Shown here one piece after another: positions 11,393 to 64,000 of a stretch of DNA of 64,000 nt; positions within the stretch are counted from its first letter, which is position 1, and each line of letters opens with the position of its first letter. Source of the stretch: Puia sp. (GTDB lineage Bacteria > Bacteroidota > Bacteroidia > Chitinophagales > Chitinophagaceae); the NCBI RefSeq assembly GCF_036500295.1, contig NZ_DASYCH010000075.1, positions 3,458 to 67,457 on the forward strand. Direction: 5' to 3'. Under the pieces are notes generated by a model, which saw only the letters and a program-made list of their open reading frames with translations, was not told where the DNA came from and did not search any database. The position numbers and the translations under genes were made by a program.

Positions 11393-11974
11393 CTAGCTGG
11401 TTGCCCAGGCCTTTTCACCCTTCTTATAATCGACACACCCCTCATACTTGCCCGGCACGGCGACATAACGCAAAGCCTTGGTCGCACCCGGCTCCGAAGT
11501 AAAGTACCCCCATAACGTTAATTCCTTCATCATGCGGAAGTAATGCGCCGGGTCGTCCTTCTTCTTCTTGTCGGTATACTCCTTTTGCTCCTTGTCCAGA
11601 TCGACCAGGAGGTTATGACGCTGCTCCGGCGTGCACTCCATAAAGGACTTGCCGTTCTTCGCCTTGCAGGCGGCTTCCAGCTTCAGCATGCCATCGAGAA
11701 ATATCTTCTGATCTGCCTCTGTATAGCAGTCCTTCACGATCCTGCCCATAAACTCACCCACCTTCGCTTCCTTGGCGCCCGGGGTATCCGTTGCCGGCAG
11801 GATGGTCTCCGAAACCTCGTCCAGGAAAGCGATATCATCGTTGGAGAAGTTGGTACCCGCTCCGCCGACACGCTTCTCCGGCGAATTGGTACATCCCGAC
11901 AGAAAGGCCTCGGCGCCGATAATGGTTCCACCCAGTAACAGCCCAACCCGGGCCAATGCGTCTCTTCTATTCAT
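11393..11974 (-). CDS. Gluconate 2-dehydrogenase subunit 3 family protein (Tat-exported small subunit of GMC dehydrogenase)
   Basis: Twin-arginine leader MNRRDAL; motifs LPATDTPGAKEAKVGEF and FRMMKELTLWGYFTSE; downstream of GMC genes. Confidence 0.9.
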   Translation of the reverse strand: MNRRDALARVGLLLGGTIIGAEAFLSGCTNSPEKRVGGAGTNFSNDDIAFLDEVSETILPATDTPGAKEAKVGEFMGRIVKDCYTEADQKIFLDGMLKLEAACKAKNGKSFMECTPEQRHNLLVDLDKEQKEYTDKKKKDDPAHYFRMMKELTLWGYFTSEPGATKALRYVAVPGKYEGCVDYKKGEKAWATS

Positions 11975-11990: not shown

Positions 11991-12077
11991 GTGCCCCGGG
12001 ATGGGTTTCACCGAAAATAACCCATCCCCGGTGCACGGCTTATGATGGGCCTTCGGCCGACGAGCCTGTGGCTCGTC
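11991..12077 (-). repeat. Three-hairpin intergenic element, copy A
   Basis: Minus strand GACGAGCC-ACA-GGCTCGTC, GGCC-GAA-GGCC, CATCATAAG spacer, long GGGGATGGGTT/AACCCATCCC hairpin; homologous to copies at 55035, 56469, 58869 and 59246. Confidence 0.9.
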
Positions 12078-49455: not shown

Positions 49456-50274
49456 TTAAGACGGCAGCGCAGCTGCCTGTCCAGTAAATAGATGATTATT
49501 CGCCTTCTCCGCAGCCTCGATAATACTATAATCCGAAAGGATATCCGCCTTCCCCTTCTTCACCGCCACATCATGCTCAAAATGCACCGAAGGCTGATGA
49601 TCCACCGTCCGCACCGTCCACCCATCACTCTCCGTATAAACGTCCCGCTTCCCCTGGTTGATCATCGGCTCGATCGCCAACACCATCCCCTCTTTTAGCT
49701 TCGCCCCCGTACCCCGGCGGCCATAGTTCGGGATCTGCGGGTCCTCATGAAGACTCTTCCCCAATCCATGCCCCACCAGCTCCCGGACCACCCCATAGCC
49801 ATATTTCCTCGCCGTATGCTCCTCTATCGCATAGGAGATATCTCCTACCCTGCCGCCCGCAATGGCCTTCTCGATCCCCTTGTACAGGGATTCCTTGGTC
49901 ACCTGGATCAGTTGCGTCACCTCCGGCCCCGGATCACCGATCGCAAAAGTATAGGCATGATCCCCATGATACCCCTTCTTGATCACCCCGATATCCACCG
50001 AAATGATATCCCCTTCCTTCAGCGCCTGCCCATTGGGAAACCCATGCACCACGACATCATTCACCGAAGTACAGGAGTTAAACGGATAACCCCGGTAATT
50101 GAGGAACGAAGGAATGGCCCCATGATCGCGGATAAACTCCCCGATCAGCTTGTCCAGTTCCAACGTCGTCGTCCCTGGCTTCAGGGTCTTAGCTACTTCA
50201 GTAAGCGTCTTGCTGACCAGCAGCGCGCTGTCGCGCATCAACTCTATCTCCGCCGGTGTCTTATAGTGTATCAT
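49456..50274 (-). CDS. map: Type I methionine aminopeptidase
   Basis: SVNDVVVHG, DIGV...GDHA, GHGLG, AIEPM, HFEH; start at MIHYK. Confidence 0.95.
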   Translation of the reverse strand: MIHYKTPAEIELMRDSALLVSKTLTEVAKTLKPGTTTLELDKLIGEFIRDHGAIPSFLNYRGYPFNSCTSVNDVVVHGFPNGQALKEGDIISVDIGVIKKGYHGDHAYTFAIGDPGPEVTQLIQVTKESLYKGIEKAIAGGRVGDISYAIEEHTARKYGYGVVRELVGHGLGKSLHEDPQIPNYGRRGTGAKLKEGMVLAIEPMINQGKRDVYTESDGWTVRTVDHQPSVHFEHDVAVKKGKADILSDYSIIEAAEKANNHLFTGQAAALPS

Positions 50275-50284
50275 ACTTGTAAAA

Positions 50285-50371
50285 TTGCGCGAATAGGTCT
50301 GCAAGCCAAATTAGCCCTATTCGCGCAAAAGGCTAACGTCTGACCTTCGGTCGAGCCGCTTCCAGCGGCTC
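50285..50371 (-). repeat. Three-hairpin intergenic element, copy F (diverged subfamily)
   Basis: GAGCCGCT-GGA-AGCGGCTC, GACC-GAA-GGTC, spacer AGACGTTAG, 13-bp stem TTGCGCGAATAGG/CCTATTCGCGCAA; same geometry and length as copies A-E. Confidence 0.7.
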
Positions 50372-50487
50372 TTATAAAAAGACCTGTCAGGAGGTCTAAT
50401 TCCTAACAGGTCACTATAGTAAAAAGTTTATTCGCTCTTTCTTACGATCCCGCGGTTCTGTTCCGGCGATCCTCGCCGGCCCAAACC

Positions 50488-51822
50488 CTAGATCACCGCA
50501 TTCGAAACCGAATTCGCGCGCCCCTGGATCCTTCCACTCTTCATCAACCCGTCATACTGACGCATCAGCAGCTGGGTCTCTACCTGCTGGAGGCTATCCA
50601 GGATAACACCCACCATGATCAACAGCGACGTGCCGCCAAAGAAAGAGGCAAACCCCTGCGTGACCCCCAGTCGTTGCGCAAATCCGGGCAGGATACCCAC
50701 GATAGCCAGCAAAAAGGCGCCGGGCAACGTGATCTTATCCATCACCGAACCGATATAGTCGGCCGTCGGCTGACCCGGCTTTACACCCGGGATGAAACCG
50801 TTGTTCCGCTTCAGATCGTCGGCAATCTGCTTGGGATTAAATATCAGCGCCGTATACAGGAAAGTAAACCCGATAACGATCACGCCGTAAATAACCATAT
50901 GGATATAGTCGCGCGGATCGGAGAACAGTCTCGCGATCCCCTTCGTGGAATCAAAGCTGGCAAAGATAGTCGGCAGGAACATGATCGCCTGCGCAAAGAT
51001 GATCGGCATTACACCCGAAGAGTTGACCTTCAAAGGCAGGAACTGCCGCGCGCCACCAAACTGGCGGCTGCCGACGATTTGCTTGGCATAGTTGACCGGC
51101 ACCTTGCGAACGCCCTGGATCAGGACGATAAGCCCCATGATGATGGCCACCAGAACGGCTATCTCGATGACAAAAACAAGGATACCACCGCTGCCGGTAG
51201 CGACCTTGGCATTCCACTCCTGCACGAAGCTGCGGGGAAGCCGGGCAAGGATACCGATCATGATGATCAGCGACTGCCCGTTGCCAAGTCCTTTATCCGT
51301 GATCTTCTCACCCAGCCACATGACAAACAGCGTACCCGCGGTCAGCACAATCGGCGTCACCAGCCAGAAATAAGCGCTGAACGAGTCGAGGATCGCATCC
51401 TTGCCAAGTCCTTTCAGATAAGTTACATAAGCATAAGCCTGAACAAAGGTGACGATCACCGTCAGATAACGCGTGTATTGGTTGATCTTCTTCTGACCGC
51501 TGGCCCCTTCCTTCTGGATCTTCTGCATCTGCGGGATCAGGATCGTCATCAGCTGCATAAAGATCGAAGCGGAGATATAAGGCATGATACCCAACGCCAG
51601 GATCGAAGCCTGGGAGAAGGCGCCGCCGGAAAACGCATCGATCAGTCCAAGGGCTCCGCTCTGAGCTCCGCTCAACGCGCTAAGCTTATTCGGATCGATC
51701 CCGGGCAATACGATAAACGTTCCAAGCCGGTAAACGAAGATCAGGCCGAAAGTCACGAGGATCTTACTTCTCAGATCCTCGATGCTCCAGATATTTCTAA
51801 GTGTCTGTACTAATTTCTTCAC
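50488..51822 (-). CDS. secY: Preprotein translocase subunit SecY
   Basis: ALGIMPYISASI, WLGEKIT..GLGNG.S, GFIPGVKPG, GGTSLLIMVGV; GTG start. Confidence 0.98.
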   Translation of the reverse strand: MKKLVQTLRNIWSIEDLRSKILVTFGLIFVYRLGTFIVLPGIDPNKLSALSGAQSGALGLIDAFSGGAFSQASILALGIMPYISASIFMQLMTILIPQMQKIQKEGASGQKKINQYTRYLTVIVTFVQAYAYVTYLKGLGKDAILDSFSAYFWLVTPIVLTAGTLFVMWLGEKITDKGLGNGQSLIIMIGILARLPRSFVQEWNAKVATGSGGILVFVIEIAVLVAIIMGLIVLIQGVRKVPVNYAKQIVGSRQFGGARQFLPLKVNSSGVMPIIFAQAIMFLPTIFASFDSTKGIARLFSDPRDYIHMVIYGVIVIGFTFLYTALIFNPKQIADDLKRNNGFIPGVKPGQPTADYIGSVMDKITLPGAFLLAIVGILPGFAQRLGVTQGFASFFGGTSLLIMVGVILDSLQQVETQLLMRQYDGLMKSGRIQGRANSVSNAVI

Positions 51823-51847
51823 GGATCAATGCAATTAATAGATAAGC

Positions 51848-51880
51848 AAAAAGACAAAGGACGCACTCAAAGATGCGTCC
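51848..51880 (-). terminator. Terminator/attenuator-like hairpin between rplO and secY
   Basis: GGACGCA-TCTTTGAG-TGCGTCC followed by TTTGTCTTTTT on the minus strand. Confidence 0.5.
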
Positions 51881-51898
51881 ATGCAAGTTACAGAAAAT

Positions 51899-52348
51899 TT
51901 ATTTCAGAATTTCTATTGTTCCGCCCGCCCCTTCAATAGCGGTTTTTGCCTTCTCGCTGACGGCGTGCACCCGGAAACTGAACTTACCCTTCAGTTCGCC
52001 GTTGGCCAATATCTTCACGACATCGCTTTGGCTAATTAATCCGTTGATATACAGATTCTCAGGCGAAAACTCAGTGATATTGTACTTTTCCGCCAGATGA
52101 TCGATCTGACCCAGGTTGAAAACCTTGAACTCCACCCGGTGGATATTGTTGAACCCACGCTTGGGGATCCTTCTCTGGATCGGCATCTGACCACCTTCGT
52201 GAGCCATCTTGCGCTGATAACCGGCACGGCTCTGGCCACCCTTATTACCCTTGGTGGAAGTACCACCCTTACCGGATGCTTCCCCACGGCCCAAACGCTT
52301 TTGTTTATGTGTTGCGCCTTCTGCAGGCTTGATCGTGTGTAAATTCAT
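51899..52348 (-). CDS. rplO: 50S ribosomal protein L15
   Basis: RLGRGEASGKGGTSTKGNKG, EGGQMPIQRRIPKRGF. Confidence 0.98.
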   Translation of the reverse strand: MNLHTIKPAEGATHKQKRLGRGEASGKGGTSTKGNKGGQSRAGYQRKMAHEGGQMPIQRRIPKRGFNNIHRVEFKVFNLGQIDHLAEKYNITEFSPENLYINGLISQSDVVKILANGELKGKFSFRVHAVSEKAKTAIEGAGGTIEILK

Positions 52349-52413
52349 TGTTTTTGATTTTGACTTACGGGGAATCGCCCCTCGCGAGCAGGCCCTTCAG
52401 GGCCCGCAAAAAA

Positions 52414-52596
52414 CTATTTTACCTCTTCCACTTTAACCAGGTGATCCACCTTACGGACCATACCCAGGATCTGCGGAGTCGCTTCCACTTCCTTCGTAGC
52501 GTGAAGCTTGTTCAGCCCGAGAGCCTTCAGCGTCTGCTTTTGACGTTCAGGCCGGTCGATGCCGCTCTTTACTTGCGTGATCTTGATCTTTGCCAT
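52414..52596 (-). CDS. rpmD: 50S ribosomal protein L30
   Basis: KITQVKSGI...TLKALGL...GMVRKV. Confidence 0.97.
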   Translation of the reverse strand: MAKIKITQVKSGIDRPERQKQTLKALGLNKLHATKEVEATPQILGMVRKVDHLVKVEEVK

Positions 52597-52649
52597 AACT
52601 TATTTTTTGGACTCTCCCCCGCAGGCTTTCGCCCGCGGCGCGTGTCAAT

Positions 52650-53168
52650 TTATCCGTTAAAAACTTTCTTTAATGAGAGATGACGCGTGCGGGAAACCTG
52701 GATCGGCTCACGCAGCATAGCCAACGCCTTGACCGTAGCCTTTACCACGTTATGCGGATTGGCAGAACCCAGCGACTTCGCCAGAACGTCGGTTACCCCG
52801 GCGCTTTCCAGAACGGCGCGCATAGAGCCCCCGGCGATCACACCCGTACCGTGAGCAGCAGGCTTGATCAACACCTTCGCAGCACCTTCCTTGGCCAGCT
52901 GGTCGTGCGGGATCGTCCCATGCATCACCGGAACTTTGATCAGGTTCTTCTTGGCATCCTCGATCCCCTTGGTGATCGCTTCCTGTACCTCTTTTGCCTT
53001 GCCCAGACCGTGACCGACAACCCCGTTCTCATTGCCCACTACAACCAATGCAGAGAAGCTGAATGCCCGGCCGCCTTTTGTCGTTTTTACAACACGATTG
53101 ATCGCAACCACCTTCTCCTTCAGTTCCAGGTCACCGGCTTTAACTCTGTTTAAGATTACTTTTGACAT
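52650..53168 (-). CDS. rpsE: 30S ribosomal protein S5
   Basis: [23 protein letters not shown]. Confidence 0.98.
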
Positions 53169-53198
53169 TGTAATTATTTACGAAGCTTATTATAAATA

Positions 53199-53552
53199 TT
53201 AAAAGTTCAGTCCACCTTCACGGGCGCCATCGGCAACAGCCTTTACCCGGCCGTGGTACAGATAACCGCCGCGATCGAAAACCACATCCTTCAGCCCCAG
53301 CTCGACAGCCTTCCGGGCGATCGCACTGCCAACCATCTTACCCTTCTCAGACTTCGTACCCTTCTGGGCAGCAATGTCCTTGTCGCGGGAAGAGGCGGAT
53401 GCCAGCGTCTTGGCGCCATCATCGTCAATCAGCTGAACATAGATGTCGTTGTTGCTCCTGAACACAGACAGCCGGGGACGCTGAGCCGATCCTGCAATCT
53501 TCTTGCGAACGCGGAACTTGATTTTCTCTCTTCTGAGTGCTTTCGTATCCAT
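53199..53552 (-). CDS. rplR: 50S ribosomal protein L18
   Basis: [23 protein letters not shown]. Confidence 0.98.
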
Positions 53553-53600
53553 GATATTCTATTTACTCCCCTGATTCCAGCCAGGAGACAGTGTTTAAAA

Positions 53601-54155
53601 TTATTTACCAGCAGCCTTACCAGCTTTCTTCCGTACCACTTCACCCACATAACGGACACCTTTACCCTTGTACGGCTCGGGCTTACGCAGACTGCGGATC
53701 TTTGCGGCAACCGCTCCGATCAACTGCTTGTCGGTCCCTTCCAGCGTGATCTTGGGATTCTCCCCTTTATTCTGCTCGGTTTGCAGCTTCAGCTCCTTGG
53801 GAATTTCGAAGATGATATTGTGCGAGTAGCCCAGCGCCAGGTCCAGGAGATTGCCCTGGTTGGATGCCTTGAAACCTACCCCGATCAATTCCAGTTGTCT
53901 TTTGTAGCCATCCGTTACACCCTTCACCATGTTGGAAGCCAGTGCGCGATACAGACCATGCAGCGCACGGTGACGGATCTGATCCGTAGGCCGGACGATC
54001 TCCAGATGACCTTCCTTTATTTCAACCTTGATATCGCGGTCGATGCTCTGCTTCAGTTCACCCTTCGGGCCCTTTATAGTCATCACATTCTCAGCGCTAA
54101 CGGTCACTGTCACACCCTTGGGAAGAACGACCGGCTGTTTACCTATACGAGACAT
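53601..54155 (-). CDS. rplF: 50S ribosomal protein L6
   Basis: MSRIGKQP, RKPEPYKGKGVRY. Confidence 0.98.
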   Translation of the reverse strand: MSRIGKQPVVLPKGVTVTVSAENVMTIKGPKGELKQSIDRDIKVEIKEGHLEIVRPTDQIRHRALHGLYRALASNMVKGVTDGYKRQLELIGVGFKASNQGNLLDLALGYSHNIIFEIPKELKLQTEQNKGENPKITLEGTDKQLIGAVAAKIRSLRKPEPYKGKGVRYVGEVVRKKAGKAAGK

Positions 54156-54256
54156 AATAATTCGATTTGTTTATTAAGATATATTGTTTCGTGTTGCCGG
54201 CCGGTCAGCCAGTATAGGTACGGGCTTAATGTACCGGCAACGCCTCTTCAGAACAA

Positions 54257-54655
54257 CTAATAGATGTAGCAAAGCACCTCGCCGCCTACATTCTGCAGCT
54301 TGGCTTCCTTGTCCGTCATCACACCCTTCGAGGTCGAGATGATCGCTACCCCAAGACCATTCTTCACCCGGACAAACTCGGCTGGGCTCGCATACTGGCG
54401 AAGACCCGGACGGCTAACCCTTTCAAGCGACTTGATCGCAGGTTCCTTGGTGGTCGGATCATACTTCAACGCGATCTTGATCACGCCTTGCTTGCTGTCA
54501 TCCTCGAACTTGTATTTAAGGATATAACCCTTGTCATACAGGATCTCGGTCATACGCTTCTTCAGGTTGGAAGCAGGGATCTCGACGATCCGGTGATTCG
54601 CCATTTGCGCATTACGGACTCTTGTCAGAAAGTCTGCTATTGGATCAGTAACCAT
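54257..54655 (-). CDS. rpsH: 30S ribosomal protein S8
   Basis: DPIADFLTRVRNA, VSRPGLRQY, STSKGVMTD. Confidence 0.98.
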   Translation of the reverse strand: MVTDPIADFLTRVRNAQMANHRIVEIPASNLKKRMTEILYDKGYILKYKFEDDSKQGVIKIALKYDPTTKEPAIKSLERVSRPGLRQYASPAEFVRVKNGLGVAIISTSKGVMTDKEAKLQNVGGEVLCYIY

Positions 54656-54750
54656 TGTCTATGTTCAGTTATAGATTATCAAAAATTATTACAATGCGAT
54701 ATCCAATGATATCATTCTCTTCGGCCCCCGTTTCCGGAGGATTCCCGCTC

Positions 54751-55020
54751 CTACCAGGACGCTTTCCTGACACCCGGGATCTTTCCCTGCAGAGCCATGT
54801 CGCGGAAGATCACCCTGGAGATCCCGAAATAACGGATATATCCCCGGGGGCGGCCTGTCAGGTGACAACGGTTATGCAATCTAACGGGAGACGCATTCCG
54901 GGGCAATTGATCAAGTGCCTTGTAATCGCCGGCGGCCTTTAAAGCGGCACGTTTCTCAGCATACTTAGCCGACAACGCTTCCCTTTTTCTCTGCCTCGCC
55001 TTTACGGACTCTTTAGCCAT
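54751..55020 (-). CDS. rpsN: 30S ribosomal protein S14 (89-aa, non-zinc type)
   Basis: [30 protein letters not shown]; lacks the CxxC pairs. Confidence 0.97.
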
Positions 55021-55034
55021 GTTATATTCTTTTG

Positions 55035-55123
55035 CGTGCGCAGGGGAGGGTTTCTCCGAAAATAACCCATCCCCCGCGCACGGTCTTATGATGGGCCTTC
55101 GGCCAGCGGACCAGTGGTCCGCT
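55035..55123 (-). repeat. Three-hairpin intergenic element, copy B (rplE-rpsN)
   Basis: AGCGGACC-ACT-GGTCCGCT, GGCC-GAA-GGCC, CATCATAAGAC, long hairpin. Confidence 0.9.
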
Positions 55124-55126
55124 TTG

Positions 55127-55696
55127 TTAGTCTTTCTTTACGTTACGGAAAGGCATGCCCAGCTCTTTCAGCAGCTCGTAAGCCTCTTCGTTGGTCCCGG
55201 CAGTCGTCACGAACGTGATGTCCATACCGGTGATCTTATTTACCTTGTCGATGTCGATCTCCGGGAAGATGATCTGCTCGGTGATACCCAGCGTATAGTT
55301 GCCGCGTCCGTCGAACGACTTCTCGTTGATACCCTTGAAGTCACGAACACGGGGCAATGCCGTAGCCACCAGCCGGTCCAGGAATTCGAACATCTTCTCG
55401 CCGCGAAGCGTAACCCGTGCACCGATCGGCATGTTCTTACGCAACTTGAAGTTCGAGATGTCCTTCTTGGATTGCGTCGTCACCGCTTTCTGACCGGTGA
55501 TGGTCGACAGCTCTTCCACAGCTACCTCGACAAGCTTCTTGTCGGTAACAGCGCCATTGACGCCACGGTTGATACAGATCTTCTCGAGTTTCGGCGCCTG
55601 CATGATCGTGCTGTAGCCGAACTTCTTCATAAGAGCAGGTACAACTTCTTTCTTGTACTTTTCTGCCAGACGCGGAGTGTATTTTGCAGTACTCAT
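55127..55696 (-). CDS. rplE: 50S ribosomal protein L5
   Basis: [36 protein letters not shown]. Confidence 0.98.
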
Positions 55697-56031
55697 TTGA
55701 TAACCTCCCCAGATTTTTTAGCGATTCGAACTAATTTCCCGTCCTCCCTGCTGCGCTTCACCTTGGTGGCGCCGCCGGACTTCGCATCATACAACTGAAT
55801 GTTGGAGATGTGAATGGGAGCTTCCTTCTTCACGATGCCACCCTTGGTGTTCTGTGCCGAAGGCTTGGTGTGCTTGGTCACGATATTCACCCCCTCGACC
55901 AATACCTTGGCCGCGTCGGGATAAACCTCCAGGACCTTCCGGGCCTTCTTCGGGTCCTTGTCGTCACCGGTGATCACAACCACGTTATCACCTTTTTTAA
56001 TATTGAACTTGGGTTTAAATCTGTTGCTCAT
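55693..56031 (-). CDS. rplX: 50S ribosomal protein L24
   Basis: [23 protein letters not shown]. Confidence 0.98.
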
Positions 56032-56083
56032 TTTATTATATTTTTCCCCGCTGCGGCGGAGCGTTCAATTCCTTGGTTTCCTC

Positions 56084-56452
56084 CTACAGCACCTCCGGCG
56101 CAAGAGAGATGATCTTCATATATCCCTTGTCACGCAGTTCCCTGGCGACAGGCCCGAAGATGCGGGTACCACGGGGCTCGTCGGATGCATTCAGCAATAC
56201 CACCGCATTGTCGTCAAAGCTGATATAGCTGCCATCTTTACGGCGTAATTTCTTCTTGGTGCGAACGATAACCGCCTTGGCAACGGTACCCTTCTTGATA
56301 CCGCCGGACGGCAGCGCATCCTTAACGGTAACTACGATCTTGTCGCCGATACCCGCATAGTCCTGCCCGCTGTTGCCCAATACGCGGATGCACAGAACCT
56401 CTTTGGCGCCGCTGTTGTCAGCCACATTTAGTCTGCTTTCTTGCTGAATCAT
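56084..56452 (-). CDS. rplN: 50S ribosomal protein L14
   Basis: [32 protein letters not shown]. Confidence 0.98.
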
Positions 56453-56468
56453 TTTATTTAGCTTTTAT

Positions 56469-56555
56469 GTACGAGGGTATGGGTTTCTCCGAAATTTGAC
56501 CCATCCCCTCGAACCTCTTATGATGGGCCTTCGGCCGTCGGACCCGTAGTCCGCC
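56469..56555 (-). repeat. Three-hairpin intergenic element, copy C (rpsQ-rplN)
   Basis: GGCGGACTACGGGTCCGAC, GGCCGAAGGCC, CATCATAAG, GAGGGGATGGGT/ACCCATACCCTC hairpin. Confidence 0.88.
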
Positions 56556-56565
56556 TTGTTTATAA

Positions 56566-56823
56566 TTACTTGGCCTTTTCCACAACCTCAACCAGGCGCC
56601 AACGCTTCGTCTTGCTCAGCGGACGGCTCTCCATGATCCTCACGATATCTCCTACGGTACACTCATTCTTCTCATCATGAGCGTGGAAACTGGTAGTCTT
56701 CTTTACGAACTTACCATAGATCGGGTGCTTCACTTTCCGTTCAACAGCCACCGTGATGGACTTATCCATCTTGTTGCTCTTTACCACCCCGATCCTCGTT
56801 TTGCGCAAATTTCTTTCAACCAT
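56566..56823 (-). CDS. rpsQ: 30S ribosomal protein S17
   Basis: [27 protein letters not shown]. Confidence 0.98.
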
Positions 56824-56845
56824 TGTATTAGCTTTTTGCTTTTTT

Positions 56846-57055
56846 TTATTTAACAGCAGTCTTCTGGGCCAATGCCGTCTTCAGACGGGCAACATCCTTC
56901 CGCAAAGCGCGGATGCTCATCGGATTCTCCAGCGGAGAAATGGCATGCGCAAACTCAAGCTTCTTCAGGCGCAGCTCGTCTTCCTGGATACGGGCCTGCA
57001 GATCGTTCTCGTTGAGATCCTTCAGGCTGTTTACAAAATCGATTCTCTTTGACAT
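56846..57055 (-). CDS. rpmC: 50S ribosomal protein L29
   Basis: [19 protein letters not shown]; position between rplP and rpsQ. Confidence 0.96.
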
Positions 57056-57079
57056 CGTATATCTGTTTTGCTATTATTA

Positions 57080-57517
57080 CTATTTTTTTACCACGACTTC
57101 CGCAACCACATCCCGGCGAACGATAAACTTCGTCTTGATCGGCAACTTCTGCGCAGCCAGCTCAAGCGCTTCCTTGGCAACCGCCATGGAAACACCATCC
57201 GCTTCAAACAGGATACGACCCGGCTCAACGACCGCAGCCCAATACTCGGGGTTACCCTTACCCTTACCCATACGCACTTCAAGCGGCTTCTTGGTGATCG
57301 GCTTGTCAGGGAAGACCCGGATCCAAACATTCCCCTCACGCTTCATCGCACGGGTAAGCGCCTGACGGGCAGCCTCCAGTTGACGATTGGTCAGCCAGAT
57401 AGCTTCCATGGCTTTCAAAGCATACGAACCAAAGGAAATAGTATCACCTCTCTTCGCCGTCTCACGGATACGACCTTTCTGTGCTTTCCTATGCTTGGTT
57501 CTTTTAGGTTGTAACAT
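57080..57517 (-). CDS. rplP: 50S ribosomal protein L16
   Basis: [30 protein letters not shown]. Confidence 0.98.
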
Positions 57518-57568
57518 CTTAGAATTATTTGCTGGTTACTATTAGTTATTATTTGAATCAACCGCGGA

Positions 57569-58429
57569 CTATCTCCGTCCACCGCCGCCGCCGCCGCGAC
57601 GATCTCCACCGCCGCCACCAGGCCTGCGGTCACCGCCGCCGCCGCCATGACCACCACGACGATCTCCACCCCGGTCTCCACCGCCACGACGATCGCCGCC
57701 GCCACGATGTCCATGATCATGATCACCATCCCTTCTGTCCCGGCGATCGCTCAGCCCACCTTCCTTACCACCGACAAAATTCGGGTTCAGGTCTCTCTTC
57801 GCCAGCACCTCACCCTTACAGATCCACACCTTGATACCGATCTTACCATAGACCGTCAGCGCAAACACATTCGCATAGTCGATATCCATCCGCAACGTGT
57901 GCAGCGGGGTCCGGCCCTGCTTGATCTCTTCCGTACGGGCGATCTCGGCGCCGCCCAGACGGCCGCTAACCTTGATCTTGATCCCCTCGGCACCCATCCG
58001 CAACGCAGAGGCGATCGCCATCTTGATCGCACGTTTATAGTTGATACGATTCTCTATCTGCCGGGCAATGGTATCCCCAACGATGTTCGCATCCAGCTCG
58101 GGCCGGCGGATCTCCAGGATATTGATCTGGACATCATCCTTGCCGGTCAGCTTCTTCAGCTCTTCCTTGATACGGTCCACCTCACCACCACCTTTCCCGA
58201 TGATGATGCCGGGCTTCGAAGTGTGGATCGTCACGATCAGCTTGTTCAGCGTCCGCTCGATCACGATCTTCGCAATCCCGCCCTTATTGATACGGGCATT
58301 CAGGTAGGTTCTGATCTTGTTGTCCTCGATCAACTTGGAAGCATAATCTTTTTTGCTGCCATACCAGTTGGATTCCCAACCGCGGATGATCCCTAACCTG
58401 GCCCCAATAGGATTCGTTTTCTGACCCAT
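57569..58429 (-). CDS. rpsC: 30S ribosomal protein S3 with long Gly/Arg-rich C-terminal tail
   Basis: [33 protein letters not shown], then GDRRGGG repeats. Confidence 0.98.
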
Positions 58430-58455
58430 AGTATATTAAATAAGTTTTATATTAA

Positions 58456-58854
58456 TTAGTTTTCCGCAGGCTGATTTTTGACCTTCGGTCGAACCGCCTT
58501 CGCCGGTTCACTGACTTTCTGATCAACGATAATGGTTACATGGTTGCTTCTCTTGCGAACACGATAACCTCTGCCCTGAGGGGCCGGACGCATACGCTTC
58601 AAAGTCCTTCCACCATCAACAAAGACCGTCTTAACGACCAGCGCGGCATCGGCCGCACTCTGACCTTCATTCTTCTGCTCCCAGTTCTTCACCGCAGACC
58701 ACAACAGCTTATGCAGCGGAGTGGAAGAATGTTGCGGGTGGTGCTCCAGCAAAGCCAGAGCTTTCTCAACATGCATACCGCGGATCTCATCAGCCAGTAA
58801 ACGCATTTTACGCGGCGATGTCGGGTAATTTCTCAATTTAGCTACTGCTTCCAT
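58456..58854 (-). CDS. rplV: 50S ribosomal protein L22
   Basis: [29 protein letters not shown]; about 20-aa C-terminal extension. Confidence 0.98.
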
Positions 58855-58868
58855 GTTAATTTTTTATT

Positions 58869-58954
58869 CGCGCTCCGGGCGTCAGGGTAAAATGTCGCCC
58901 TTCGCGCTCATTCCGTTTATGATTGGCCTTCGGCCGCCGGACCCGTGGTCCGTC
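58869..58954 (-). repeat. Three-hairpin intergenic element, copy D (rpsS-rplV)
   Basis: GACGGACC-ACG-GGTCCGGC, GGCCGAAGGCC, AATCATAAAC, diverged long hairpin (CGCG..GGGCG/CGCCC..CGCG). Confidence 0.85.
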
Positions 58955-58961
58955 TTATAGT

Positions 58962-59234
58962 TTAAGCGATCTTCTTGCTCGAATGTCCTTTAAAGTTGCG
59001 GGTGGGCGCAAACTCACCCAGCTTATGGCCTACCATAAACTCCGTCACATACACCGGGATGAACTTGTTACCGTTATGCACCGCCAGCGTATGCCCCACG
59101 AAATCGGGCGTAATGGTGGAACGACGGCTCCAGGTTTTGATCACCCCTTTCTTAGCTGTCCCTTCATTGATAGACAGGATCTTCTCTTCCAGGTTAGAGT
59201 CTACGTAAGGACCTTTTTTTATTGAACGACCCAT
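58962..59234 (-). CDS. rpsS: 30S ribosomal protein S19
   Basis: [32 protein letters not shown]. Confidence 0.98.
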
Positions 59235-59245
59235 AGTTGATGATT

Positions 59246-59333
59246 GTGCTCCGGGTATGTGTTTATCCGAATAGTACCCATCCCCGTCGCACGTCTAATG
59301 ATGGGCCTTCGGCCAGCGGACCCGTGGTCCGCT
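59246..59333 (-). repeat. Three-hairpin intergenic element, copy E (rplB-rpsS)
   Basis: AGCGGACC-ACG-GGTCCGCT, GGCCGAAGGCC, CATCATTAGAC, GTGC..GGGGATGGGT/..ATACCC..GCAC hairpin. Confidence 0.9.
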
Positions 59334-59337
59334 TTGG

Positions 59338-60177
59338 TTATTTCGACAATTTTTTACCGTTCTTCCGTTGGATGATCATATGATCGCTGTTCTTGCCTTT
59401 CTGACGGGTCTTCAGACCACGGCTGTACTGAGCATTCCTGCTCCGGGGCTGACCACCGGATGCCTTACCTTCACCACCACCCATCGGGTGATCCACAGGG
59501 TTCATGGCAACACCACGCACCCGCGGACGGATACCCCGCCAGATATTTCGGCCGGCCTTACCCATGCTCTGCAGCGAGTGATCGCTGTTGGATACAACCC
59601 CTACAGTCGCATAACAGTTGATCAGCACCTTCCTCAATTCGCCGGAAGGCATCTTCAGGACGGCATATTTCTCTTCCTTATTGGTCAACTGAGCGGAAGT
59701 ACCGGCGCTGCGCACCAGCTTGCCACCCTGACCAGGCTGCATTTCTATATTGTGAACATTGGTACCGAGAGGCATACTCTTCAGTTGCAATGCATTGCCC
59801 AACTCGGGAACTACATTGTCGCCGGAAAGCACCGTGGCGCCAACCTGCAGACCCTGCGGAGCCAGGATATACCTTTTCTCACCATCCACATAATTCACCA
59901 GGGCAATAAAAGCCGTACGGTACGGATCGTATTCGATAGACGCGATCACCCCTTTGATCTCCTTCTTATTCCGCTTGAAATCGATGATCCGGTACATCCT
60001 CTTGTGACCACCACCCATATAACGCATCGCCCTTCTTCCCTGAGCGTTCCGTCCGGCCGTGGATTTTACTTTCTCCAGCAGCGACTTTTCCGGGGTATCC
60101 GAAGTGATCTCGGCATAGGCGTTCCCAACTCTCCAACGAGTTCCGGCGGTGATCGGTTTGTATTTTTTCAGTGCCAT
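59338..60177 (-). CDS. rplB: 50S ribosomal protein L2
   Basis: GGGHKRMYRIIDFKR, VRGVAMNPVDHPMGGGEG. Confidence 0.99.
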   Translation of the reverse strand: MALKKYKPITAGTRWRVGNAYAEITSDTPEKSLLEKVKSTAGRNAQGRRAMRYMGGGHKRMYRIIDFKRNKKEIKGVIASIEYDPYRTAFIALVNYVDGEKRYILAPQGLQVGATVLSGDNVVPELGNALQLKSMPLGTNVHNIEMQPGQGGKLVRSAGTSAQLTNKEEKYAVLKMPSGELRKVLINCYATVGVVSNSDHSLQSMGKAGRNIWRGIRPRVRGVAMNPVDHPMGGGEGKASGGQPRSRNAQYSRGLKTRQKGKNSDHMIIQRKNGKKLSK

Positions 60178-60237
60178 GTCTGTTCTCTTTTTATTGCGAA
60201 ATTATCAGCTTCGCTAACTATTAGTCAATGAATATGT

Positions 60238-60537
60238 TTAAATGCTGGCGTAAAGATCGATCGACTCCCCTTCCGCTACAGTGATCAACGCCTTCTTGTA
60301 GGCAGGCTTCCGGCCCTGTACATAACCGGCCTTCGTAAAGCGGGTCTTGTTCTTGCCCGGTACGACAGAGGTGTTCACATCCACCACCTTCACGCCGTAG
60401 AAGTCTTCCACAGCCTTCTTGATCTCTAACTTGTTCGCCTTGCGGTTGACACGGAAAGCATAGCGGCGCAGTTTGTCCTGCTGGGCATTTGCCTTTTCTG
60501 TCAGTATCGGTTTTACTAAAACTTCAGAGAGTTTCAT
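60238..60537 (-). CDS. rplW: 50S ribosomal protein L23
   Basis: KPILTEKA, KLEIKKAVE, YKKALIT. Confidence 0.98.
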   Translation of the reverse strand: MKLSEVLVKPILTEKANAQQDKLRRYAFRVNRKANKLEIKKAVEDFYGVKVVDVNTSVVPGKNKTRFTKAGYVQGRKPAYKKALITVAEGESIDLYASI

Positions 60538-60565
60538 CTCTTATAAATTTTTCTAATTAATGAAA

Positions 60566-61198
60566 TTAAGCTTCCTCACCGTCCGCGAAGATCTTCGCAG
60601 CACCTTCACTAAGTACCAGGACCTCCGCATTCACGATGTCGTAGGTATTGATATCCGTCAGCATCGTGCCCTCCACCTTCGGAAGGTTCCGCAGGCTCAG
60701 GTACAGGTTCTTATCATAATCGGCGGGAAGAATAAACAAAATTTTCTTGCCGTCGATATTCAATTTCTTCAGCGCATCGGTGAAGGATTTCGTCTTCGGC
60801 GCATCCAGCTTGATGTCCTCGACAACTACAATCGCATTTCCCTTCGCCTTGTGAGCCAGCGCAGAGATCTTTGCCAGGTCCTTCACTTTCCGGTTCAGCT
60901 TGAAATCATAATCCCGGGGCTTGGGGCCGAAGATGGTACCACCACCCTTGTACAACGGGTTACGCAGATTACCCTTACGGCTACCGCCCGTTCCCTTCTG
61001 ACGATGGAGCTTCTTGCTCGAACCCTTCACTTCCAAACGCGTCTTCACCTTGTGCGTACCCTGACGCTGTGCAGCCAGGTACTGCTTGACGGCCAGGTAG
61101 ATCACATGATCGTTCGGCTCGGCGCCAAAGATCTCCTCGGGCAATTCCACCGTCCGGCCAGTCTTCTTTCCTTCTATATTTAAAACATCTGCTTGCAT
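60566..61198 (-). CDS. rplD: 50S ribosomal protein L4
   Basis: QRQGTHKVKTR, RQKGTGGSRKG, GGGTIFGPKPR. Confidence 0.98.
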   Translation of the reverse strand: MQADVLNIEGKKTGRTVELPEEIFGAEPNDHVIYLAVKQYLAAQRQGTHKVKTRLEVKGSSKKLHRQKGTGGSRKGNLRNPLYKGGGTIFGPKPRDYDFKLNRKVKDLAKISALAHKAKGNAIVVVEDIKLDAPKTKSFTDALKKLNIDGKKILFILPADYDKNLYLSLRNLPKVEGTMLTDINTYDIVNAEVLVLSEGAAKIFADGEEA

Positions 61199-61218
61199 GG
61201 TAATGTCTTTAAAAGAAT

Positions 61219-61836
61219 TTACTTCTGAATGAATACAATAGAACCGATATGACCAGGAACCGAACCGCTAACAAGGATATAGTTCTTCTCAGGGAAGATC
61301 TTCACAACCTTCAGCGCCTTCACCTTAACACGGTCGCCGCCCATCCGGCCCGCCATGCGGACACCCTTCATAACACGGCTGGCGTCAGAGGAGTTACCAA
61401 GGGAACCCGGAGCACGCTGACGGTCATGCTGACCATGCGACTGCTCACCTACCCCATGGAATCCATGACGCTTGACGACACCCTGAAAACCTTTACCCTT
61501 CGATGTGCCCACTACTTCAACTTTCTCACCTTCGGTGAAAATGTCTACAGTAACGGACTCACCAAGAGCCTTTTCTATAGAGAAATTGCGAAATTCTTTT
61601 ACGAACTGTTTGGGAGAAGTGTTGGACTTGGCGAAGTGATTTTTTTGCGCGGCAGTAGTGTGCTTTTCTTTCTTTTCGCCAAACGCTAACTGGTGGGAAG
61701 TATAACCATCTGATTCCTGGGTCTTCACCTGCGTAACTACACAGGGACCCGCTTCGATGATCGTGACGGCTGTTTGTTTGCCGTCAGGACTGAAGACGCT
61801 GGTCATCCCGATCTTTTTACCAATAATGCCTTTCAT
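61219..61836 (-). CDS. rplC: 50S ribosomal protein L3
   Basis: MKGIIGKKIGMT, GKGFQGVVKRHGF, MAGRMGG; start at MKGII. Confidence 0.98.
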   Translation of the reverse strand: MKGIIGKKIGMTSVFSPDGKQTAVTIIEAGPCVVTQVKTQESDGYTSHQLAFGEKKEKHTTAAQKNHFAKSNTSPKQFVKEFRNFSIEKALGESVTVDIFTEGEKVEVVGTSKGKGFQGVVKRHGFHGVGEQSHGQHDRQRAPGSLGNSSDASRVMKGVRMAGRMGGDRVKVKALKVVKIFPEKNYILVSGSVPGHIGSIVFIQK

Positions 61837-62203
61837 TTTCTTAAAAATTTGTGCCGTCGGGTATGAGACAGAGCATAGACTTACTACATTGGCTCGTAGC
61901 ATCGATCTACATCTTCAATCCCTCGTTTGCAGCCGACCTTTTCTTTTCGTCACCCCTCGCGCATCTTGTATGCATCCCGGGCGAACAGAAGTACCGGCAG
62001 TAAACAAACCCTGAACGGCTTGTTCATATGTGATACCTACTCTCGTAGGTGATTTACCATAGTAACAATCCAGCGCTACTTTATCTCAGCTCCCGCCGAA
62101 AGTTTGTAGATGGATAGAAAGAGCTATTGCGAATCCCTCGCCACTTACCCCTCAGGGCCGTCAAAACCCCCGATAGGCCCCGCCTATCAGTGCAACGCAC
62201 AGG

Positions 62204-62509
62204 TCAGGCCTTGATCTCAACATCCACACCCGAAGGCAGATCCAACTTGGACAACGCATCCACCGTCCGCGAAGACGAAGTGTAAATGTCCAACAGGCGC
62301 TTGTGCGTATGCAGCTGAAACTGCTCACGGGCCTTCTTGTTTACGTGCGGCGAACGCAGTACGGTAAAGATCTTCTTACGGGTAGGTAAGGGAATAGGAC
62401 CCGTTACCACTGCACCGGTACTCCGAACGGTTTTCACGATCTTTTCAGCAGATTTATCTACCAAATTGTGATCGTAAGACTGTAATTTGATTCTGATTCG
62501 TTGAGACAT
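62204..62509 (-). CDS. rpsJ: 30S ribosomal protein S10
   Basis: [34 protein letters not shown]. Confidence 0.99.
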
Positions 62510-62539
62510 AAGCCAAATCCCATTTTTTCGAATGGGATG

Positions 62540-62572
62540 CAAAGGTATGTATTTGTTTGCCTCACTCCCAAA
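62540..62572 (-). promoter_or_regulatory. S10 operon sigma-A promoter
   Basis: -33 TTTG (62569-62572), 21-nt spacer, -7 TACCTTTG (62540-62547); matches the Bacteroidota consensus. Confidence 0.8.
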
Positions 62573-62633
62573 AATTCGGGACTTTTTTTGGAAAAAACCC
62601 GGGCCCCGGCAGGAACAGCTCACTCCCCTAGCC

Positions 62634-64000
62634 CTACCTTCCCCCGGGTGGGCAGTTCCGCCTCAAAAACTCGGTATACGTCGCCGCAAGATGCTCCCGC
62701 GTCCCATCCCCCTCGAAGATCCCATGACTCCGGTTCGGATATGCCATAAACTGAAATACCTTCCCCGCCGCGATAAGGGCATTCAACAACTGCTCGGCAT
62801 TTTGATAGTGTACATTGTCATCACCAGTTCCATGAATGTATAAGAGCTTGCCTCTCAAATTCTTAGCGTAGGTGATCGGCGATCCGGCCACAAAATCCTC
62901 CCTGTTCTCCTCCGGTAACCCCATATACCGCTCCTGGTAAATATTGTCGTAGCTCAGCTGGTTTCCCACCGCGGCCACCGCGATGCCCGTCTTGTAGATC
63001 TCCGGATACTGGAACAACAGGTTCAGCGTACTCGATCCACCCCCACTCCAACCCCAGACCGCCACCCGGCTGCTATCCACGAACGGCCACTTCAGTATCT
63101 CCTTCGCCGCCATCGCCTGATCCCGGATATTGAGCCGGCCGATCTGCCGGTAAATGGACTTCCGCCATGCCCGGCCCTTCGGAGCCGGCGTACCCCTGTT
63201 GTCAAGACTCACGTAGATGTACCCATCCTTCGCCATATCCCCCGTATACAGGGGATTGGCCCCGATACCCGCCTGGTCCAGCACAGTCTGCGCGGCCGGC
63301 TCGCCGTATACGTAGAATACCACAGGATATTTCTTGGTAGCATCAAAGGGCGAAGGCCTTACCATCCAGCCGTCCATGTCCACCCCATCGGCGGTGCGAA
63401 CGCCAAAGAATAGTACCTCCTTCCCCGTCCCGGCCCCAACACCGCCACCCGGCGCGGCGGCCTCCTTTCCGCCCCCAACGCCCGCAACGGCGCGCGCAAG
63501 CGAAGCATGCCCCGGCAGTCCCACCATCTCCTGCCGCTCTTCCACATTCGCGCTGCTATAGGTATGGAGCGCAAACCGCCCATCGGGCGAAATATCGTAC
63601 TCGTGCATTCCCTTCTCATTTGCCGGCGTCAGCCGCTCCGGCCCGCCCTTTCCATCCAGCCGCGTCCGGTACAGGTATTTTTGCGTCGCATTCTGCGGAC
63701 TCGCCATGAAATACAACCAGCCGCCCTTCTCATCCACCCGGCTAACCCCCATCACATCGTAACTCCCACGGGTGACCAGGGTTTCCCGCTTCCCGTCCCG
63801 GCTCACCCGGTAAACATGACGCCAGCCATCCTTGTCCGATACCCAGAGGAACTCCCTGCCCCCGCCAAGCCAGTCCCAGCCCGCGATCACCCCGTCCTGC
63901 CAGACATCCTTGCAGTCGATAAAAGCGCTGTCCCTTTCGTCATAGATCTCCGTCGTCCGCCCCGTCGACACATCGCTGATCAGCAGCTTGCTCTCGTTTT
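62634..64000 (-). CDS. S9B family dipeptidyl peptidase IV-like serine peptidase (3' part; start outside window)
   Basis: GWSGGG nucleophile, [17 protein letters not shown]; the frame stays open to the window edge. Confidence 0.92.

Follow-up and report, generated by a model that had tools for sequence, protein, structure and literature searches.

What fills the long spacers of a ribosomal-protein operon whose neighbouring junctions measure 20-28 nt? The question is raised by the S10-spc operon of Puia sp. (Bacteroidota, Chitinophagaceae) on contig NZ_DASYCH010000075.1, in a stretch of 64,000 nucleotides (positions 3,458 to 67,457) here termed the window, where a first-pass annotation had described an unnamed three-hairpin repeat between the genes. 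Four spacers (rplB-rpsS, rpsS-rplV, rpsQ-rplN and rplE-rpsN) are indeed nearly full, each housing one homologous minus-strand unit of an element ~90 nt long, and the neighbouring junctions are as short as had been claimed; in total the window holds six full copies and one partial copy of the element on its minus strand. These belong to a lineage-specific family of structured intergenic repeats of Puia and related Chitinophagaceae, which is undescribed and has no entry in Rfam. Transcribed structured intergenic repeats are a known kind of sequence; the unusual traits of this one are its asymmetric three-part build, its gene-linked polarity, an invariant GAA mini-hairpin and the selection on copies within the ribosomal-protein operon. 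Conserved far above silent sites and mostly in sense orientation, it looks like once-mobile DNA now working as folded mRNA, and the explanation favoured here, at about an even chance, is that of a REP/BOX-like repeat (REP, repetitive extragenic palindrome) of mobile origin, retained as an intercistronic mRNA structure.

The units in the four spacers share one order: a 19-nt hairpin (hairpin 1, of 8 bp with a 3-nt loop), a GGCC-GAA-GGCC mini-hairpin, a linker of the CATCAT[T/A]AG type or reading AATCATAAA, and a hairpin of 45-48 nt (hairpin 3). They start 1-11 nt past a stop codon and end 11-16 nt ahead of the next ATG. This anatomy had been described correctly, as had the divergence of the long hairpin in the copy called D, which is that of the rpsS-rplV spacer if copies are lettered by rising coordinate (the one at 50280-50374 then being copy F). 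The exact 11-mer GGCC-GAA-GGCC occurs five times in the window, and allowing up to one mismatch gives eight matches against 2.3 expected, a number that none of 100 shuffles reached. With a covariance model, R1, built from 46 copies, the six full copies have E-values of 3e-21 to 5e-10, their folding z-scores ranging from -1.7 to -5.5, and rescanning the window by R1 with filters off revealed no copies beyond these six and a remnant in rplV. The mini-hairpin of copy F carries a compensatory change at its second pair. All copies in the window lie on the minus strand and adjoin minus-strand genes, the window having 40 genes on that strand and 17 on the other.

The wider family was sampled through an exact scan with the 17-mer GGCCGAAGGCCMATCAT, covering one genome per species, which gave at least 117 genomic stretches. 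Among the matches listed, ~100 are from Puia species, Flavitalea sp. BT771 and metagenome-assembled genomes of Chitinophagaceae or Chitinophagales, the remainder being chance matches in other phyla without flanking hairpins. R1 located 125 copies in 99 loci (737 kb; loci are cited below by L numbers) among these listed matches, and it is these copies from seeded loci on which the analyses of orientation, covariation and context are based. About 20 of the 125 lack the exact seed, corresponding to about one further copy per 35 kb of flank, so that, by rough extrapolation, each genome would hold around a hundred copies or more. The window organism itself is a soil-metagenome population, with 78% of its sampled words present in one DNA run. 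Outside this group, 80 S10 operons of other Bacteroidota, fetched via S19 at 68-91% identity, contained no R1 copy at E<=0.01 and one weaker match at E 0.045. Phage carriage was rejected, as a viral collection yielded only two chance matches. The single Rfam match at gathering thresholds in the whole window is a tRNA, and at E<=10 the region 50000-64000 gives four chance-level matches, none reaching a family's gathering score and none to a ribozyme family; the Rfam models compared include hammerhead, twister, pistol, hatchet, HDV-like and the motifs described from Bacteroidota. The searchable literature (on the core sequence, Chitinophagaceae repeats, Bacteroidetes REP, RAYT (REP-associated tyrosine transposase) or MITE (miniature inverted-repeat transposable element) families, and hairpin repeats) holds no description of the element, a Chitinophagaceae-linked match on RNA-guided transcription by dCas12f proving unrelated. 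The first-pass annotation had recognised no named family, and neither source supplies one.

Pairing is strongly maintained across the family. In the 125-copy alignment, standard pairs occupy 95.1% of pair cells, compared with 66.6% after shuffling and 28-44% when partners are slid, and cells changed on both sides relative to the commonest pair number 600, compared with 175 in shuffles; for each of the covariation measures, none of 500 shuffles reaches the observed value. Fitting of the alignment to the model favours structure, but the margin is very large and an alignment by MAFFT only agrees for hairpin 1. Hairpin 1 covaries freely, consistent with the exchange between copies noted earlier at the first stem, where the arms GACGAGCC/GGCTCGTC assigned to copy A are found in the fifth full copy at 11991-12080. 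In the mini-hairpin, the CC-GAA-GG top is almost invariant, while the second pair covaries (GC, AU, UA, CG). Together with an AU-rich linker these two hairpins make up a 5' module of ~42 nt, which is also found alone or with other 3' hairpins, terminators included. Hairpin 3 falls into subfamilies with unrelated stems within its narrow length range, usually having a central purine-rich internal loop, an apical loop starting TAWATTT and an A-rich tail after it. Its GGGRATGGG arm never forms a hairpin without the 5' module, on which ground hairpin 3 was rejected as an independent repeat. The linker varies widely among diverged copies (for example AGACGTTAG, AGATAAAAT and AATATAAAG).

Combinations of these parts occur in several loci. 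A tandem arrangement with an 88-nt period is present in L010 (3594-3611, 3682-3699) and L095 (3127-3300), the latter having two full elements head to tail and the former a truncated 3' arm of hairpin 3 immediately ahead of a full element. In L004, L026, L094, L001, L104 and L078, the 5' module is followed by other repeats (ACCCGR-stem-GTTCA-stem-CGCTC, or a short tandem GGGTCGATGGTCCGCTCTCA), which suggests that further repeat families combine with it.

The imperfections in the stems point to the strand that folds. Single mismatches flanked by Watson-Crick pairs, read on the element strand, comprise 32 G·T but only 6 A·C (p=2e-5), and purine-purine mismatches are commoner in the stems than pyrimidine-pyrimidine ones. 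Contigs from rhizosphere and root metatranscriptomes carry the 5' module at many loci, with a word depth of up to 261 compared with 12.6 on the flank, and also show the empty rplB-rpsS junction from relatives.

Orientation relative to genes was assessed using a codon-usage caller trained on the loci, which reproduces the S10-spc map except for missing rpsN and rpsJ. By this measure 53 copies lie in sense between co-directional genes, a further 20 are overlapped only by the over-extended start of a sense open reading frame (ORF), 17 follow a gene at a convergent junction, 14 precede a gene at a divergent junction, 13 are antisense between co-directional genes and seven fall within antisense ORF calls. 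The informative class, that of co-directional genes, divides into 73 sense and 20 antisense copies (binomial p<1e-7). The rule that all copies follow the transcript therefore holds for the window and for the S10-spc operon at large, where the element is sense in all 11-12 occupied spacers, but fails elsewhere for about a fifth of the copies between co-directional genes. In L024, L026, L028 and L037, a single 8-kb locus contains two copies in opposite directions, each along its own gene's direction; because such inverted pairs follow their own genes, polarity tracks transcription and not a single replication direction, and an orientation set by replication was rejected at this 8-kb scale.

The 3' end of the element is similarly placed with respect to genes. 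Long-form copies adjoin a sense start codon in 47 cases and a convergent gene end in four, the corresponding figures for copies with other 3' modules being 23 and 16 (Fisher p=2.5e-4). Hairpin 3 ends 5-35 nt before the ATG, the first two following positions being A in 64-67%, and in divergent intergenic regions nine copies are found no more than 25 nt from a start codon. For the start region (-18 to +10), the unpaired probability predicted over 37 copies is 0.59 in the natural sequence, falling to 0.545 when the element is removed and to 0.56 when it is shuffled (p~0.01 each). On the other side, copies in the seeded loci lie most often at -7 to +9 nt from the stop codon.

Comparison of orthologous spacers, which the first-pass annotation had proposed, revealed presence and absence differing between relatives, without target duplication. 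The operons compared, some from the genome scan and ten more obtained via an L14 protein identical to that of the window, come from genomes with 10-18% divergence in ribosomal-protein gene DNA. Besides the four spacers of the window (= L200), the element occupies rplD-rplW in L199 and L021; rpmD-rplO in L198; rpsS-rplV, rplN-rplX and rplE-rpsN in L202; rpsS-rplV in L205; rpmC-rpsQ and rpsQ-rplN in L206; rplR-rpsE in L102; and, in L023, rplE-rpsN, rpsH-rplF, rpsE-rpmD, rpmD-rplO (5' module only) and rplO-secY (a weak match). Across these genomes 11-12 distinct spacers are occupied, while four relatives (L201, L203, L204 and L207) have none. The rplB-rpsS spacer is empty (13-18 nt) in nine related operons, and rpsQ-rplN is empty (29-33 nt) in L023, L198, L199, L201, L202 and L205 but filled in L206; in this last copy (L206, 3836-3987) a ~60-nt insertion lies within the GAA mini-hairpin, the remainder of the element being intact.

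Where two genomes share an occupied spacer, the element has been conserved in place beyond neutral expectation. At rplE-rpsN, the window copy is 89% identical to that of L202 at the same position and 90% identical to that of L023, compared with 61% and 58% at fourfold sites; the equivalent values are 82% and 54% at rpsS-rplV (L205), and 84% and 57% at rpsQ-rplN (L206). The fourfold figures, taken from ten flanking ribosomal-protein genes, are conservative, since codon bias slows change at those sites. The rpsS-rplV subfamily was found nowhere in ~1.5 Mb of fetched DNA other than in the window and L205, and this confinement to one locus makes the two copies true orthologues; between them, the mini-hairpin has changed from GGCC/GGCC to GCCC/GGGC in a compensatory fashion. 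Further compensatory changes between orthologues affect two hairpin 1 pairs (L021 vs L199) and replace A-U by G-C in hairpin 3, and in five comparisons of copies sharing a spacer, the frequency of change at paired positions is about half that at unpaired ones. The family thus displays covariation, polarity, strand-specific wobbles and in-place conservation above neutral, as is generic for structured cis-acting RNAs. The sense bias (73:20), the excess of G·T over A·C, the covariation and the same-spacer conservation together lend support to the cis-acting mRNA module that was one of the two readings initially offered.

Table 1. Copies of the element, the spacers that hold them and other features of the window (coordinates of the 64,000-nt stretch)
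Feature	Coordinates	Strand	Parts and context	Scores
rplB-rpsS spacer	59235-59337	-	nearly filled by element	
Full copy, rplB-rpsS	59246-59336	-	CAA lead-in 59334-59336; hairpin 1 59315-59333 (AGCGGACC-ACG-GGTCCGCT); mini-hairpin 59304-59314; linker CATCATTAG 59295-59303; hairpin 3 59246-59292; rpsS ATG 59234	88.2 bits, E 1.2e-20; folding z -3.5
rpsS-rplV spacer	58855-58961	-	nearly filled by element	
Full copy, rpsS-rplV (diverged subfamily)	58868-58957	-	hairpin 1 58936-58954; mini-hairpin 58925-58935; linker AATCATAAA 58916-58924; hairpin 3 ~58868-58912, with 3x3 internal loop (GAA / GGA)	66.4 bits
rpsQ-rplN spacer	56453-56565	-	nearly filled by element	
Full copy, rpsQ-rplN	56469-56558	-	hairpin 1 56537-56555; mini-hairpin 56526-56536; linker 56517-56525; hairpin 3 56469-56514	80.8 bits
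rplE-rpsN spacer	55021-55126	-	nearly filled by element	
Full copy, rplE-rpsN	55036-55126	-	hairpin 1 55105-55123; mini-hairpin 55094-55104; linker 55085-55093; hairpin 3 55036-55081	86.9 bits; folding z -5.5
Fifth full copy	11991-12080	-	between genes for GMC oxidoreductase (12076-13791) and gluconate 2-dehydrogenase subunit 3 (11393-11974), both by Pfam; hairpin 1 12059-12077 (GACGAGCC-ACA-GGCTCGTC), overlapping the TGA stop; mini-hairpin 12048-12058; hairpin 3 11991-12036	91 bits; folding z -5.2
Sixth full copy, diverged (copy F)	50280-50374	-	between intrinsic terminator after secY (50376-50412) and map ATG (50274; Peptidase_M24 by Pfam); hairpin 1 GAGCCGCT-GGA-AGCGGCTC; mini-hairpin GACC-GAA-GGTC; linker AGACGTTAG; hairpin 3 ends ~10 nt before ATG	45.7 bits, E 5e-10; folding z -4.0
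5'-module-only remnant (45 nt), in frame, 3' end of rplV	58465-58509	-	hairpin-1-like stem GAACCG...CGGTTC; GACC-GAA-GGTC; AAAAATCAG	17.5 bits, E 0.005
rpsJ-rplC spacer	61837-62203	-	367 nt	
RpsC (S3) C-terminal tail	57569-57800	-	long; Gly/Arg/Asp-rich repeats (GGDRRGG...)	
rpsN-rpsH spacer	54656-54750	-	GATATCATTGGATATCGCATTGTAA, a small hairpin with tail	
Hairpin just upstream of rplO	52349-52413	-	CGAGGGG[C/A]GA[T/G]TCCCCG	

How the copies arrived can be read from filled and empty versions of the same junction. The cleanest is rplD-rplW, where L198 has TAATTTCGTTAATTAG and L199 has TAATTTC[AG-hairpin 1...hairpin 3]GTAATTAG. Neither here nor at rpmD-rplO, rplB-rpsS or rpsS-rplV were terminal inverted repeats or a consistent target-site duplication found, and the two ends of the element are unrelated to each other; repeats of AAGATC, TACAG and AG at single sites were discounted as target-site duplications, as they do not recur across junctions. 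The possibility that hairpin 1 is a pre-existing target was likewise rejected, since it enters with the insert (L202 vs L203 at rpsS-rplV; L199 vs L198 at rplD-rplW). Solo hairpin-1-like stems, such as AGCGGGTC-TTT-GACCCGCT and ACGGAC-TAC-GGGTCCG, are present directly after stop codons at rpmD-rplO in L205 and L199, at rpsS-rplV in L206 and at rpsQ-rplN in L203 and L207, in spacers that hold full elements in other genomes, and may be either remnants or a small repeat in their own right. The sole signal in the flanks is C-A-[A/G/T] ahead of hairpin 1, with C at -22 in 53%, the sequences 5' of the element reading TTTC, CTTC, TTAC, TGAC or TAAC. On the gene tree, the rplE-rpsN copy is found in the window, L202 and L023 and has gone without a scar from the sister lineages L198/L199 and L203/L205, so seamless losses occur beside gains. 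The rplV remnant lengthens the L22 tail by 15 residues relative to L198, as judged from an alignment of L22 C-termini and the DNA. Entry as a whole just past stop codons, gain and loss between species, and this one in-frame landing in a gene show that the element began as DNA that was mobile or could at least be inserted. The family is old, and its gain and loss slow: identity between copies is the same within as between genomes (median 62-63%, maximum 84-87%) and no pair reaches 90%, such that no recent burst is visible and a recent burst of transposition was rejected.

A mobilising enzyme was sought in the same loci. A six-frame motif scan of their ~1 Mb of flanks detected one HUH-type gene, in L010, and no TnpA or Y1 gene with an intact tyrosine motif. 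The gene in L010 (2465-3061), also retrieved in L208-L212 (4001-4597), encodes 198 residues, is single-copy and is called RayT by some sources, although it scores 21.5 bits against a Pfam threshold of 23. Its position is fixed between UvrD and a hypothetical gene on one side and ArsC and an ECF sigma factor on the other. The protein keeps SHLH and WQ but has HIHENP in place of the RAYT motif YIHxNP in seven of seven aligned sequences, and on these residues looks like a domesticated or inactive Y1 protein. Within ~2.7 kb of it there is no R1 match and no CCGAAGG in five loci representing three different proteins. As the candidate is syntenic, lacks the catalytic tyrosine and is not flanked by copies, a link between the element and this RAYT was rejected. 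The first-pass annotation's alternative of a REP- or MITE-like element moved by an HUH transposase is consequently sustained in part: the element is a dispersed repeat (125 copies in 99 loci among the matches listed) that has been gained and lost, but the HUH connection finds no support, there being no terminal inverted repeats, target-site duplication or GTAG or CGTC tag, and the one RayT-like gene in the loci having HIHENP in a syntenic, unflanked setting. Bacteroidetes RAYTs of subclass 2.6 are reported to be bordered by atypical secondary structures (PMC6006769), and a different Y1 gene may therefore exist elsewhere in these genomes.

On the favoured explanation, a repeat of mobile origin retained as mRNA structure, we infer from the sequence comparisons that resident copies are selected as RNA structure within sense polycistronic mRNAs; cleavage, an effect on mRNA stability or translation, and sense transcription at each locus would be expected to accompany this. 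Their most likely role, in a phylum whose translation begins without Shine-Dalgarno pairing, would be to punctuate the mRNA between cistrons. The upstream cistron would be shielded from 3' exonucleases by hairpin 1 together with the mini-hairpin, acting as a 3' barrier; an endonuclease (RNase E/G/Y or RNase III type) might enter at the single-stranded linker or at the long stem; and the downstream cistron would have its 5' side capped by hairpin 3, which by folding on itself would keep the inserted sequence off the A-rich start region. Several observations weigh against this explanation. The antisense copies between co-directional genes are real and intact-looking, and such wobble pairs as they have, few in number, fall on the strand of the element itself (4 G·T vs 0 A·C), neither of which a structure acting only in mRNA would predict. 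The CC-GAA-GG triloop is exceptionally stable in single-stranded DNA and is not a notable motif in RNA, which points to a step at the DNA level. Gene conversion, or repeated insertion of consensus-like copies, could be partly behind the same-spacer identity, and the L023 rplE-rpsN copy lies 12-14 nt farther from the stop codon than that of the window. The predicted gain in start accessibility is small, though in the expected direction; the metatranscriptome contigs, being directionless and broken at repeats, report presence in RNA pools and not RNA ends; and no mobilising enzyme was found in the ~1 Mb of locus flanks.

One alternative is that the element is purely selfish, non-autonomous DNA of REP or IS200/IS605 derivation, like the palindrome-associated transposable elements (PATEs), with a single-strand-specific HUH Y1 enzyme recognising its hairpins, C-GAA-G included, and with an RNA structure that is incidental. 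This is unlikely, if not negligibly so. The sense bias would then arise through purging of antisense copies from operons, some of them acting as hairpin-plus-U terminators, and some antisense copies would indeed read as a hairpin followed by a U-run. Junctions without terminal inverted repeats or target duplication, seamless loss, subterminal hairpins and the enrichment of C 5' of the element, recalling insertion 3' of a short target, all suit such an origin, as do the DNA-stable loop, the intact antisense copies and the G·T bias that even these show on the element's own strand; in-frame insertion, as in rplV, has been reported for REPs (PMC3733652, PMC6006769), and subclass 2.6 RAYTs reportedly lie beside atypical structures (PMC6006769). 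Passive copies should decay, however, whereas those sharing a spacer are conserved far above fourfold sites and change in compensatory pairs. The identity distribution gives no sign of recent transposition, there is no GTAG or CGTC tag, the inverted pairs in single loci follow genes and not the replication fork, and the one RayT-like gene found is syntenic, single-copy, devoid of the catalytic tyrosine and without flanking copies in five genomes. A second alternative, to which we give little credence, is that of a dedicated initiation module for starts lacking Shine-Dalgarno sequences, hairpin 3, through its AU-rich apical loop and A-rich tail, being a standby or S1-type landing platform, or an insulator governing how often the downstream cistron is initiated, and the 5' module secondary. 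It would account for the tie of long-form copies to an adjacent sense start (47 vs 4), the constrained length of hairpin 3 and its position ahead of an A-rich start, the TAWATTT loop start kept across subfamilies of unrelated stems, and the slightly higher accessibility predicted with the element present. Yet that accessibility effect is small, most start codons and most orthologous spacers in relatives have no element, the empty spacers, at only 14-30 nt, in part dictate the closeness to the ATG, and it is the 5' module, not hairpin 3, that stays invariant across the family.

The apical loop of hairpin 3 has also to be considered as DNA, for TAnnTTT resembles the Bacteroidetes -7 box (TAnnTTTG) and lies ~40-45 nt before the ATG, as would be expected of a portable promoter, with each copy driving the gene after it. 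The consensus applies to this organism, the rpsJ promoter of the window fitting TTTG-N21-TACCTTTG when read by eye; TAWATTT opens most hairpin 3 loops, a 5' untranslated region of ~25-35 nt would follow from the geometry, copy F takes up the entire gap between the secY terminator and map, and the nine copies close to start codons in divergent regions are suitably placed. The chance that this is the explanation is nevertheless slim. The full TAnnTTTG is present in only about one loop in ten, neither main subfamily has a TTG at -33 spacing, and a scan of the divergent-context copies and copy F detected no box inside the element that was matched at 6/6 or supported at -33; a promoter moreover leaves the covarying stems and G·T bias unaccounted for, and internal promoters in every other ribosomal-protein spacer would have no obvious use. 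A new class of self-cleaving or catalytic RNA, its core made up of CCGAAGG, the linker and hairpin 3's internal loop, is barely credible. Invariant unpaired or loop nucleotides beside freely covarying stems would speak for it, the mini-hairpin's CCGAA could pair with the UUCGG that is frequent in the hairpin 3 loop, being its complement, and an intercistronic position is common to many known ribozymes; however, no known ribozyme family is matched even at E<=10, diverged copies differ widely in their linkers, UUCGG is missing from many loops, and the 5' module is combined with unrelated 3' modules or stands alone.

Comparison with known repeats places the element among, but not within, established families. 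REPs are extragenic, lie downstream of coding regions, are transcribed, form mosaics of units and occasionally insert in frame into genes (PMC3733652, PMC6006769). The element shares with REPs and bacterial interspersed mosaic elements, which are mobilised by RAYTs in Proteobacteria, GC-rich extragenic hairpins in high copy number, a location after coding regions and between co-directional or convergent genes (sometimes overlapping or supplying the stop codon), a mosaic build, the occasional in-frame insertion and transcription with its neighbours. It differs in having no GTAG or CGTC tag, its lead-in being C-A-[A/G/T] with CGTC arising by chance in some hairpin 1 variants; in its asymmetric build of three parts over ~90 nt, where REPs are palindromes of 20-40 nt; in the rarity of inverted dimers and its strong sense bias; and in the lack of a cognate RAYT gene flanked by copies among the five loci of the RayT-like family. 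REPs have known roles in the protection of mRNA 3' ends. The BOX elements of Streptococcus pneumoniae, RUP and ERIC are similarly modular combinations of short boxes, ~100-200 nt long, intergenic and co-transcribed, with stable predicted RNA folds, no encoded enzyme, a mobiliser that is unknown or borrowed, and local effects on the expression of neighbouring genes; the element bears no sequence relation to them, belongs to another phylum, and has in addition a gene-relative polarity, the invariant CC-GAA-GG and documented in-place constraint. Correia elements of Neisseria (CREE/NEMIS), ~100-150 nt long and present in hundreds of copies next to genes, with which they are co-transcribed, include some with promoter-like boxes, and their mRNA hairpin is cut by RNase III, altering transcript stability. 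By contrast with the element, they are symmetric, with terminal inverted repeats and a TA target duplication.

The want of terminal inverted repeats and target-site duplication equally separates the element from MITEs, and brings it closer to PATEs, which also have subterminal hairpins on one strand, seamless loss and possibly a short 5' target. In the element, though, the end hairpins are unrelated, only 2-3 nt separate the left end from hairpin 1, orientation follows genes within single loci, and no TnpA was seen in the ~1 Mb of flanks. Where PATEs insert 3' of a fixed target of 4-5 nt, the element is preceded by C (53%) in otherwise varied flanks. The housekeeping promoter of Bacteroidetes (TAnnTTTG at -7, with TTG ~19-21 nt upstream) is a poor match, since the element's loops rarely have the final G and there is no -33 element at the right spacing. 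As regards function, the nearest precedents are the intercistronic RNase III sites of phage T7 and the malE-malF REP stabiliser, at which hairpins punctuate polycistronic mRNA and leave protective stem-loops. The element may work in the same manner by analogy; these are single fixed sites, whereas it is a dispersed family and its processing a proposal.

Other features of the operon were observed alongside the element. The rpsJ-rplC spacer is long in all Chitinophagaceae relatives (90-408 nt), the other spacers being short; a leader, a small gene or an RNA may lie within it. The GATATCATTGGATATCGCATTGTAA sequence in the rpsN-rpsH spacer recurs in the distant relative L118 and, lying upstream of rpsH, is a candidate for a conserved leader or a site of autoregulation. 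The hairpin preceding rplO is found in the window, L198, L199 and L201-L206 (nine of ten Puia-clade operons) and is absent from L207, where the spacer is 12 nt long; the rest of this spacer is variable or hosts the element. Among the 80 operons from other Bacteroidota, the nearer ones, of other Chitinophagaceae, have long spacers occupied by unrelated hairpin repeats such as AATTTGAAAATTTGAAAATG.../...CATTTTCAAATTTTCAAATT. In L118, L121, L127 and L129, the same S10-spc spacers hold unrelated, lineage-specific hairpin repeats, one type with inverted TTTGAAAATTTGAAAA/TTTTCAAATTTTCAAA arms and another with GCCCCTAACCCCTAAAGGGG hairpins, and long structured operon spacers seem to be general in the Chitinophagaceae.

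Translation in Bacteroidota starts largely without Shine-Dalgarno pairing, and to our knowledge little has been established about how their polycistronic mRNAs are processed and balanced. The element amounts to a natural experiment on this point, in which a structured unit of ~90 nt has been placed, in one polarity, at at least 11 junctions of the most highly expressed operon and then held there by selection. Pairs of close relatives with the same junction filled and empty, together with two cultured carriers, Puia dinghuensis CGMCC 1.15448 (loci L070 and L208) and Flavitalea sp. BT771 (L007 and L015), are suited to testing the effects of hairpins on mRNA ends, stability and initiation. With at least 125 copies, strong covariation and no Rfam entry, the family is a well-supported addition to the poorly catalogued repeats of soil Chitinophagaceae, and the filling of the same spacers by unrelated hairpin repeats in sister lineages suggests that these spacers represent a general niche or need, rather than the family being a one-off. 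A bolder proposal, which we regard as unlikely, is that the element is a portable expression cassette of Shine-Dalgarno-less Bacteroidota, whose 5' module would be bound by a dedicated protein or nuclease and set the 3' end of the upstream message while hairpin 3 sets the downstream leader. Were this true, a single insertion would undo the tight coupling of a junction and leave two cistrons that are each stabilised and translated on their own, and related lineages would have reached the same end in the same operon via unrelated hairpin repeats.

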